Shown: piece by piece, positions 7,885-19,940 of the stretch | Layout of the letters: every line of letters begins with the position of its first letter | Numbering within the stretch: the stretch's first letter is position 1 | Assembly (NCBI GenBank): GCA_003345595.1 | Contig: PRDI01000007.1 | Span: 1-43,130 of the forward strand | DNA: 43,130 nucleotides | From: Candidatus Thorarchaeota archaeon | Lineage (GTDB): Archaea; Asgardarchaeota; Thorarchaeia; Thorarchaeales; Thorarchaeaceae | Direction of reading: 5' to 3' | Notes under the pieces: model-generated | What the model was told of the DNA's origin: nothing | Seen by the model: the letters and a program-made list of their open reading frames with translations, nothing else | Database searches by the model: none | Translations under genes and position numbers: made by a program

Positions 7885-7975
7885 CCCTCAGCTTAACTAT
7901 GACTCATCATTGGACTTGCGTCCTAAGATAGCCTTTGGTCATCATTGGATAGCCCAAGAGACTCATCCAAAGGGA
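7885..7975 (-). ncRNA. Box C/D 2'-O-methylation guide sRNA, predicted target LSU rRNA helix 69
   Basis: Minus strand: ATGATGA (7945-7939), ATGATGA (7910-7904), 12-nt spacer GTCATAGTTAAG, CTGA (7891-7888). The spacer is antisense to the conserved H69 sequence UAACUAUGAC. The 5' end is uncertain. Confidence 0.75.
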
Positions 7976-8006
7976 CCGCATATCCCGGTAAAAGATGTTG
8001 TTGGAA

Positions 8007-8291
8007 TCAGAGAAGGGTCACAGGCGTACCCAAAGCCTGTCCCGGTAGGTTAGTCCGGAACTTCGCACGGACTGCCCCACTGTTACCATGAACACCGAGC
8101 ACCTTTCCAACGAACTCACTTCCCGATGTAGAAACCCACTTGATGTCCCGGCCAACTAGGGCTGCGGCACCACTCTTTGATTCGACACCATCAAACTGCA
8201 GAATGACTTGGCCGTGGTGCTGGAGGTGTTTTCCTCTACGATAGCTCATCACGACGCCCTTGCGGCCTTTGATCACATCGCTTGTAGACAT
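8007..8291 (-). CDS. rpl35ae: 50S ribosomal protein L35Ae (eL33)
   Basis: KGVVMSYRRGKHLQ, GKVLGVHGNSGAVRAKFRTNLPGQALG. ATG 8291 inferred as start. Confidence 0.95.
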   Translation of the reverse strand: MSTSDVIKGRKGVVMSYRRGKHLQHHGQVILQFDGVESKSGAAALVGRDIKWVSTSGSEFVGKVLGVHGNSGAVRAKFRTNLPGQALGTPVTLL

Positions 8292-9316: not shown

Positions 9317-10252
9317 ATGGAGCGGGTACAGCACATCGACCCTGAGAAAGACACGTCCGTCGCAGGACTTGTACGTGCCATGGAGAAGGTTGGTGTCCTT
9401 GGAGCAGGTCGCCTTGGGAGGGCCGCAGCAATCACCTCAAGGATGTTCAACGATCCTGAATGCTACACATTTCTCTCTCTCTCTGGTCCAATGGTCCCCG
9501 GCGGGCTGCGAAGGGTTGTGACGTATCTTGTCAGGAATGGATACGTAGATGCTATAGTCACCAGCGGAGCAAACATAGTACATGACGTTGTAGAGGCCTA
9601 CGGCGGGGCACACTACAGAACTGACAACCCAACTGATGACAAGGTTCTTCGAAGTAAACATCTTGGCAGAATCGGCGACATCTTGATTCGCGAAAAGGAC
9701 TTTGCAGTATTTGAGAAGGGAGTTTACGATTTCCTAGACCAGCTGGATCCCCAGAAGACTGCGAGCATGGCTCCTAGCGAGTTCCTGAGAGATTATGGAC
9801 TGACACTCACTGATGAGGAGTCCATATTGCGCCAAGCAGCTCTCAGGGGTGTCCCTATCTTCTCTCCTGGTATCATGGACTCGATGCTCGGCTTCCACAT
9901 ATACGCCTACAGTACAACCAAGAAGTTCACTCTCGACTTCGTGAAGGATCTTAGGATACTGGGAGAGATAGTGCATAAGACGAAGAAGACAGGAGCCATA
10001 ATGCTGGGCGGTGGTCTCAGCAAGCACTTTACCATGGGCTGCACAATCCTCAGGGGTGGTCTGGACCTCGCAGTTCAGATAACGCTTGACCGCCCTGAAG
10101 GAGGTAGCCTCAGTGGGGCTCCTCTTGTTGAGGGAATATCTTGGCAGAAGGTTCAGACAGATGCGAACTGCGAAACCGTCATAGGCGATGCTACAATCGT
10201 CTTTCCCCTACTTGTTATTGCAGCACTCTCCGGGCCGGAAACGGGCACATGA
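9317..10252 (+). CDS. dys: Deoxyhypusine synthase
   Basis: SGPMVPGGLR, VTSGANIVHD, LGGGLSKH, GSLSGA...EGISWQKV (active-site Lys), GDATIVFPL. Alternative start TTG 9308. Confidence 0.93.
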   Translation: MERVQHIDPEKDTSVAGLVRAMEKVGVLGAGRLGRAAAITSRMFNDPECYTFLSLSGPMVPGGLRRVVTYLVRNGYVDAIVTSGANIVHDVVEAYGGAHYRTDNPTDDKVLRSKHLGRIGDILIREKDFAVFEKGVYDFLDQLDPQKTASMAPSEFLRDYGLTLTDEESILRQAALRGVPIFSPGIMDSMLGFHIYAYSTTKKFTLDFVKDLRILGEIVHKTKKTGAIMLGGGLSKHFTMGCTILRGGLDLAVQITLDRPEGGSLSGAPLVEGISWQKVQTDANCETVIGDATIVFPLLVIAALSGPETGT

Positions 10253-19419: not shown

Positions 19420-19940
19420 AACTCCTAGAAGTGTTCCTAACGTCGGTTTCCATGCTTCAGACACCGCTTCAATTTCAGGTTTTTCCATCATGGTGGTTTT
19501 CCTTACTCGAAACAGTTCTGAATGCGGCATATGCCATTACCATCAGGGGATACTTACTCATTGTTTTGATTGGGCTCATGCTCTATATGACTGGCCTGTG
19601 TGATGAACTTGGCAAGATACTTGTTGTCGGGGGCGTGGGGATCTACTTTGTTGGCCCTTATCTTGTTAGCCTCTTGGCGACTGTAGCCGGCATTGAACCC
19701 ATAACACTTGAGAGCGCGACGAGCGCGTGGCTGAAAGTCTTCGCAATGAGTGACAGCGAGCTGATTGCACTGATTGTGACCCTGGCCGAGGTCCTTGCAG
19801 CCATCTGCTGTGTGGCTGGAGCAATAATGTATCTTGTTCCATCATCAAACGAACTAAAGTCTAGGGGGCAGTCATTGATTGTCAGAGCGCTGATTCTTGC
19901 CCCGGTCTTGGTGTTCTTTCAAGTGTCCCCTTGGATATAG
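19416..19940 (+). CDS. Membrane protein with two tandem helical hairpins (possibly VirB2/TrbC pilin-like)
   Basis: Start overlaps the udg stop (GTGA). Two similar units: LIVLIGLMLYMTG..ELGKILVVG and ICCVAGAIMYLVP..SRGQSLIVRA. Confidence 0.72.
   Translation: MKLLEVFLTSVSMLQTPLQFQVFPSWWFSLLETVLNAAYAITIRGYLLIVLIGLMLYMTGLCDELGKILVVGGVGIYFVGPYLVSLLATVAGIEPITLESATSAWLKVFAMSDSELIALIVTLAEVLAAICCVAGAIMYLVPSSNELKSRGQSLIVRALILAPVLVFFQVSPWI

Follow-up and report, generated by a model that had tools for sequence, protein, structure and literature searches.

A box C/D guide RNA gene downstream of rpl35ae in a Thorarchaeota genome, predicted to direct 2'-O-methylation of A1913 in helix 69 of 23S rRNA

In hyperthermophilic archaea, helices 68, 69 and 71 of the large-subunit rRNA are predicted to be hotspots of methylation (Dennis et al. 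2015, PMC4644070), with a hotspot position given as 'around E. coli position A1912 (A2178 in our alignment)' (PMC4644070). Two crenarchaeal guides are described for this site: Iho-sR91 of Ignicoccus hospitalis, with predicted targets at 23S A2179 and G2211 (PMC4644070, supplementary file 1), and Sac-sR113 of Sulfolobus acidocaldarius, assigned to A2177/9 (PMC4644070). A2179 of that alignment corresponds to E. coli A1913 and G2211 to E. coli G1945. The N+5 rule applied to the printed sequences AUCAGAGUUACG-CUGA (Iho-sR91) and CUCAGAGUUACU-CUGA (Sac-sR113) selects in both cases the second A of UAAC, which is A1913. As the preliminary description of the present locus had stated, the same nucleotide is Am2256 in yeast, guided by snR63; it lies two nucleotides 5' of psi2258, the equivalent of E. 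coli 1915, and human rRNA shares the modification (PMC2794176). Close spacing of D and D' targets is familiar from archaea (PMC6009581). The literature searched yielded no catalogue of Asgard C/D sRNAs.

The locus lies in a stretch of 43,130 nucleotides of Thorarchaeota DNA that was analysed at its full length (hereafter the window), and comprises a predicted box C/D sRNA gene of about 70–78 nt on the minus strand, at approximately 7955–7878. An rpl35ae-like ORF (8339–8007) stops 52 nt before its terminal stem and a 192-aa membrane-protein ORF begins 44 nt downstream of the sRNA. The 5' strand of the terminal stem, GGGC-UAUCC (7955–7947, minus strand), faces the 3' strand GGGUA-A-GUCC (7887–7878, minus strand); UAUCC (7951–7947) pairs with GGGUA (7887–7883), and GGGC (7955–7952) can extend the helix to 9 bp by pairing with GUCC (7881–7878) across a bulged A7882. 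Box C, AUGAUGA (7945–7939), fits the consensus RUGAUGA, and its columns vary little or not at all among 62 homologues. Next comes a 15-nt stretch, ccaaaggcuaucuua (7938–7924), made up of the 11-nt D' guide CCAAAGGCUAU (7938–7928) and a degenerate box D', CUUA (7927–7924). A hairpin, GGAC-GCAA-GUCC (7923–7912), closes the C'/D' kink-turn with a 4-bp stem found in all homologues, and leads to a canonical box C', AUGAUGA (7910–7904), the 12-nt D guide GUCAUAGUUAAG (7903–7892) and a canonical box D, CUGA (7891–7888), exactly 12 nt past C'. Boxes C, C' and D are thus canonical in the window copy and the guide spacers measure 11 nt (7938–7928) and 12 nt (7903–7892). The internal kink-turn is laid out as a stem, a 3-nt bulge AAU and then GA; in CUUA the third position of the box has changed from G to U, which leaves no G for the second sheared G-A pair and puts an A-U at that position instead. 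The boxes, spacers, strand and coordinates given in the preliminary description, including a degenerate D', were exact throughout. Two plus-strand ORFs of 47 and 48 aa (7910–8091) run antisense to the sRNA gene and its promoter and are most likely spurious.

Homologues were present in 62 of the 65 Thorarchaeota rpl35ae loci fetched, and these 62 sequences constitute our alignment. Their consensus reads GGCUCC-G-AUGAUG(C/A), AAUUGGCUAU, CUGA, a GGGC-loop-GCCC hairpin, A-GCGACGA, GUCAUAGUUAGA, CUGA and GGAGCC. The core of the D guide, UCAUAGUUA, is invariant in all 62, C' is in most relatives a degenerate GCGACGA in which the two GA steps are kept, and the D' columns read CUGA or CCGA in most relatives, CCUA in the sister genome L007 and also in L037 and L051, and AUGA in others. 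In the terminal and internal stems 97% of cells pair, compared to 89.5% in shuffled alignments, of which none in 500 reached the observed value; both sides have changed in seven of the ten stem pairs, and controls in which the strands were slid pair at no more than 52%. Three of the four internal pairs have changed on both sides (GGGC/GCCC, GGAC/GUCC, GAGC/GCUC, GGAU/AUCC) and compensatory changes also mark the homologous terminal stem, GGCUCC/GGAGCC in relatives. RNAalifold predicted the same two helices unprompted. A covariance model of the family, R1, gave a single match in the genome from which the window derives (67.3 bits, E 1e-12; 7953–7877 in the window). Among 151 genomes sampled from the phylum it matched 25 of 26 in the Thorarchaeota family (f1), 1 of 1 in f2, 11 of 13 in f5, 3 of 25 in f9 and 1 of 1 in f18, and a pattern search added f17 (5/5) and one f13 genome. 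The window copy scores fourth-lowest among the Thorarchaeota-family matches, at 67 bits versus 90–100 for typical copies, and may be partly decayed. The whole element, boxes and guide included, is kept, with covariation, in dozens of genomes, and conservation in relatives was one of the points on which the preliminary description had staked its identification.

Anatomy, conservation and stem covariation together bear out the proposal of an unannotated box C/D guide RNA. The Rfam search suggested in the same description gave less: no family matched anywhere in the window at gathering score, and in E-value mode only weak CD-box matches were returned (snoR38 with 23 bits; sR11 and others with no more than 14), with every Rfam model of archaeal C/D sRNAs (sR) at or below 14 bits on the window copy. 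These matches were rejected because they involve the boxes alone; the guide of snoR38 is unrelated.

The position beside rpl35ae, to which attention had been drawn earlier, is a conserved feature, the linkage being kept in several Asgard families. The rpl35ae relatives retrieved come nearly all from Thorarchaeota MAGs, and downstream of them the homologue usually lies some 45–100 nt away. Five loci depart from this arrangement (L018, L033, L045, L055 and L060), with the sRNA 600–1100 nt off, and loci of f5, f9 and f17 likewise place it at such distances or in unrelated contexts. About 23 nt upstream of the 5' stem a motif, (A)AGTTTTATC, recurs in nearly all relatives; its homologue in the window is the TATA-like element CTTTTAC (7994–7988, minus strand), 36 nt upstream of the terminal stem. 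TATA-like sequences (GCTATAAG, ACTATAAG and GTATAAG) are also present upstream of copies no longer near rpl35ae, and we infer that the motif is the sRNA's own promoter. Between CTTTTAC and the stem (7994–7956, minus strand) the window has 13–14 nt more than other Thorarchaeota genomes, an insertion common only to the window and a sister genome (L007/G124), which probably forms a 5' leader that needs trimming. This insertion contains a C-box-like GGAUGAG (7968–7962), which was not taken as a further box because the sister genome reads GGAGGAG; it belongs to a lineage-specific insertion absent in other relatives. In one f17 genome (G021, locus L115) the homologue stands outside the rpl35ae context, in a small RNA-gene cluster (692–746, 783–845 and 966–1053), where the H69 guide directly follows another C/D-like sRNA (weak Rfam sR12/sR3 matches) and precedes a tRNA gene whose anticodon region has 15 nt inserted.

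The cognate 23S rRNA is available as a partial sequence on contig C46 of the same genome. Its helix 69 (H69) reads GGGAC-UAACUAUGA-GUCUC, followed by UUAAGGUAGCCAAAUGCC (H69 is also given as UAACUAUGAG), and the pair closing the loop in Thorarchaeota is C1910-G1920, not G-C. With positions 1911–1919 of this rRNA the D guide forms 9 Watson-Crick bp, with mismatches at N+1, N+2 and N+12, that at N+2 being A-C in the window copy. The N+5 nucleotide, U7896, stands opposite the second A of UAAC in a Watson-Crick U-A pair, so that the arithmetic that had placed the target at the equivalent of A1913 was correct. A1913 (E. coli numbering) is a nucleotide that we take to belong to intersubunit bridge B2a. 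The region 1911–1919 is the unique best site for the D guide in the 16S and 23S rRNAs of the genome; the match goes beyond chance, with shuffled guides of matched composition reaching at least 9 bp including N+5 in 34 of 2000 trials. The preliminary description had supposed a 10-nt pairing with a loop reading UAACUAUGAC, but the cognate H69 differs at position 1920 and the duplex is therefore 9 bp rather than 10. That exact string, whose absence from H69 the preliminary description had named as a refutation, is missing from the 23S rRNA, and a search of the genome found it only as the guide's own complement; the nine-nucleotide match in H69 is there nonetheless. The duplex, AU-rich and at the low end for efficient guiding, has a calculated energy of -10.1 kcal/mol, versus -12.8 kcal/mol for the Thorarchaeota consensus guide.

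To compare guides with their targets, H69 sequences from 53 of the sampled genomes were set against them. In Thorarchaeota and f5, where H69 has C1910 and G1918, the D guide is UCAUAGUUAG, with G at N+2 and C at N+10. In f17, with G1910 and G1918, it is UCAUAGUUAC and N+2 is C. G023 (f13) and G025 (f18) combine G1910 and A1918 with UUAUAGUUAC, that is, C at N+2 and U at N+10, and genus g37 of f9, with the same G1910 and A1918, has GUUAAUAGUUACG, in which N+2 is C and the C at N+10 is gone. The exceptions are the window, L007 and a few other Thorarchaeota copies, which carry A at N+2 opposite C1910. Another Thorarchaeota genome, G075 (A1910-U1920), was considered as a compensated case and discarded, since N+2 of its guide is A and the change is uncompensated. 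Overall, exceptions aside, the guide tracks H69 positions 1910 and 1918 across families, and the Watson-Crick U-A pair at N+5 is present in every homologue. No computational evidence for a functional pairing is stronger than this agreement of guide and target in three independent states. As to H69 itself, Thorarchaeota and f5 close the loop with C1910-G1920, most other Asgard families with G-C and G075 with A-U, and several Asgard families have a bacterial-like A1918 or the loop variants UAACUGUGA and UAACUCUGA.

In Thorarchaeota the core of the D' guide, GGCUAU, is conserved, usually within UUGGCUAU, and in most of these genomes it forms 8–9 bp with 1930–1938, with N+5 at C1934. The window version reads AAGGCUAU, of which only GGCUAU pairs with GUAGCC (1930–1935) of its own 23S rRNA, giving 6 bp with one G-U and N+5 again at C1934. 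Judged from these comparisons, the D' half of the window copy is weakened in both box and guide, and no target found for its guide is convincing. The preliminary description had proposed a longer pairing of the upstream spacer, GGCUAUCUUA:UAAGGUAGCC with one G-U, and had built on it the usual archaeal dual-guide layout. This 10-bp pairing is correct as arithmetic, but its last four bases, CUUA, are the D' box, which leaves the actual D' guide with only 6 bp, so that the layout as drawn from GGCUAUCUUA does not hold. CUUA is aligned with CUGA or CCGA of most relatives, and is thus a degenerate D' box, not guide. As a guide for UAAG of the 23S rRNA it was rejected because relatives have CUGA, CCGA, CCUA or AUGA at this place though the rRNA segment is invariant, which indicates that complementarity of these four bases is not under selection. 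An alternative D' box, AGGA (7924–7921), which would validate the earlier proposal as a 9–10-bp pairing with N+5 at U1931, was also discarded, because in the alignment it is CUUA that lines up with CUGA, and GGAC forms part of the covarying hairpin.

In other families the D' guide addresses further segments of the same strand. The f5 version, ACAAGGCAUU, pairs with 1937–1946 and has N+5 at G1940, and those of f13, f17 and f18 (e.g. UAACCCGGCAAG) pair with CUUGCCGGG at about 1942–1950, with N+5 at G1945; the target variant in G023 is CUUGUCGG. The Thorarchaeota guide is shifted to 1930–1937. As far as these predicted pairings go, the second guide drifts along the strand near H69 across Asgard families. 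The f5 23S rRNA has G instead of C at position 1934 (UAAGGUAGGC). A tRNA target for the D' guide of the window was considered and rejected, a scan of 12 intron-less tRNAs giving one 8-bp match, which is about the level of chance. The partner, on contig C56 (approximately 10008–10100), is a doubtful tRNA-like sequence of 93 nt with an 8-nt loop (ttga); CCAAAGGCUAU forms 8 Watson-Crick bp with its anticodon stem and loop, which places N+5 at the first loop C (position 32); should the D' half have been retargeted, this tRNA-like match would be a lead.

Among the closest described guides is Iho-sR91, whose D guide AUCAGAGUUACG-CUGA is assigned to A1913 and whose D' guide UAACUCGGCAAG is assigned to G1945; the f17 RNA (D' guide UAACCCGGCAAG, D guide AUCAUAGUUACG) aligns with it box for box, through both guides. 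The window copy differs in that its D' guide is replaced (GGCUAU core, N+5 at C1934 and not G1945), its D' box is degenerate and its guide fits another H69 (UAACUAUGA, C1910-G1920). Of the dual guide for A1913 and G1945, the window copy has the D part and not the D' part, and f13, f17 and f18 have both. Sac-sR113 resembles the window copy in its D guide, CUCAGAGUUACU-CUGA, with N+5 on the same H69 adenosine, but its D' and C' are joined by a short k-loop, no target is predicted for its D' guide, and its backbone is another. With archaeal C/D sRNAs in general the element shares the order C, D', C', D, spacers of 11–12 nt, the N+5 rule and close D and D' targets in rRNA. The usual D'-C' k-loop of such RNAs spans 3–9 nt; here, in contrast, the D'-C' interval is 12–16 nt and is taken up by a covarying 4–5-bp hairpin, that is, a closed kink-turn. 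SNORD46 (RF00218) and snR63 have the same target nucleotide, and the end of the SNORD46 consensus, GUCAUAGUUACA-CUGA, is nearly the same guide, but the eukaryotic RNAs are longer and without a matching C'/D' half. The best Thorarchaeota copy (G116) scores 23.2 bits (E 0.28) against the RF00218 model, versus a gathering score of 40, and the window copy is not listed at E up to 10. At the level of sequence comparison the resemblance is limited to the boxes and a guide dictated by the target.

The genome (2.73 Mb, 129 contigs, 83% complete) encodes the proteins of a C/D RNP. A nop5-fibrillarin pair lies adjacent on contig C14 (2071–3554; PF01798 209 bits, PF01269 291 bits) and L7Ae on contig C75 (643–921; PF01248 95 bits). 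A strict genome-wide scan for C/D sRNAs yielded four candidates in all. One of them, on contig C2 (approximately 19421–19471, minus strand), has a 6-bp terminal stem and the succession GUGAUGC, 11 nt, UCGA, 7 nt, CUGAAGA, 11 nt, CUGA, and its D' guide forms 9 Watson-Crick bp with 16S rRNA near position 980; two others lie on contigs C17 and C115.

Taken as a whole, these data point to a real, hitherto unannotated box C/D sRNA gene, and the best explanation of it, to which we would give a probability of roughly 85%, is that the sRNA guides 2'-O-methylation of A1913 in H69. Transcription, RNP assembly and methylation are proposed here from anatomy, conservation and co-variation. The RNA would probably be transcribed from its own promoter just downstream of rpl35ae, and its fold would comprise two kink-turns, one terminal (C/D) and one internal (C'/D'), the latter closed by the 4-bp hairpin and not by a k-loop. 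L7Ae, Nop5 and fibrillarin of the same genome would assemble on it, and the D guide would pair with the loop and 3' side of H69 (1911–1919) in the nascent 23S rRNA, placing the ribose of A1913 in the active site of fibrillarin for 2'-O-methylation. The weakened D' half would probably contribute at most auxiliary binding to the adjacent H70/H71 strand.

The shortness of the duplex, 9 bp with a mismatch at N+2, would also suit a C/D RNP that acts mainly as a chaperone of rRNA folding, with methylation of A1913 inefficient or absent in the window's lineage. Throughout the Asgard families compared, D and D' guides are directed at neighbouring segments (H69 and 1930–1949), and for guides so arranged a role as chaperone has been suggested (PMC4644070, PMC6009581). 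Against it stand the N+5 U-A pair in every homologue, an invariant guide core that follows the changes in H69, and methylation of the same site in eukaryotes, and chaperoning and methylation are in any case compatible; we regard a mainly chaperoning RNP as unlikely. The features in which the window copy falls short of its relatives could instead be read as those of a decaying, non-functional pseudo-sRNA in the genus-level lineage of the window: D' is CUUA and not CUGA, the D' guide is down to 6 bp, an A has replaced the G at N+2 and makes a mismatch, about 14 extra nt separate the TATA-like box from the stem, and the R1 score is below those of typical Thorarchaeota copies. Decay beyond function is, however, very improbable given that boxes C, C' and D show no flaw, the internal stem is whole, and the terminal stem has been rebuilt by compensatory changes (UAUCC/GGGUA versus GGCUCC/GGAGCC) and not lost; the sister genome (L007/G124) has the same layout, and this is the sole copy of the family in the genome.

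L7Ae is described as binding kink-turns in mRNAs (PMC5539422). With 52 nt between it and rpl35ae and 44 nt between it and the next ORF, the element might be an L7Ae-binding regulator in cis, acting from the 3' UTR of rpl35ae or from the 5' UTR of the membrane-protein gene that follows, with no guide function in trans. The most conserved part of the element is, however, the 9–10-nt guide, which co-varies with H69, its TATA-like motif is kept, and several copies lie 600–1100 nt from rpl35ae or in unrelated contexts, so that a cis-acting role is barely conceivable. Guided methylation of A1913 thus remains our preferred reading.

What the guide says about ancestry is a separate matter. The preliminary description had implied a special link between Asgard archaea and eukaryotes. 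This does not follow, as the same nucleotide is the published predicted target of Iho-sR91 and Sac-sR113; since Crenarchaeota have predicted guides for the same site, its presence in an Asgard genome has by itself no bearing on eukaryogenesis. The predicted target and its guide are common to Crenarchaeota, Asgard archaea and eukaryotes, and we read the window copy as the Thorarchaeota member of an old family of archaeal guides directed at the adenosine in the H69 loop. The same sites and guides in three groups may fit descent or convergence on two invariant, functionally important nucleotides. It is a speculative and rather doubtful idea that the family descends from an archaeal ancestor into eukaryotes, a dual guide for A1913 and G1945 giving rise to SNORD46/snR63 and perhaps to the guide of Gm2288; if it were true, the ancestral dual guide would survive in Ignicoccus and several Asgard families, and the Asgard copies would already possess a eukaryote-like closed C'/D' kink-turn.

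For a specialist the locus is a sound annotation that holds no surprise and opens no new category. To the annotation of Asgard genomes it contributes a well-supported non-coding gene, an sRNA that Rfam misses, and it shows cleanly how a guide RNA can change in step with its rRNA target, at positions 1910 and 1918, while the second guide drifts nearby. It also predicts that Asgard ribosomes would carry Am at the bridge-B2a nucleotide modified in yeast and human.
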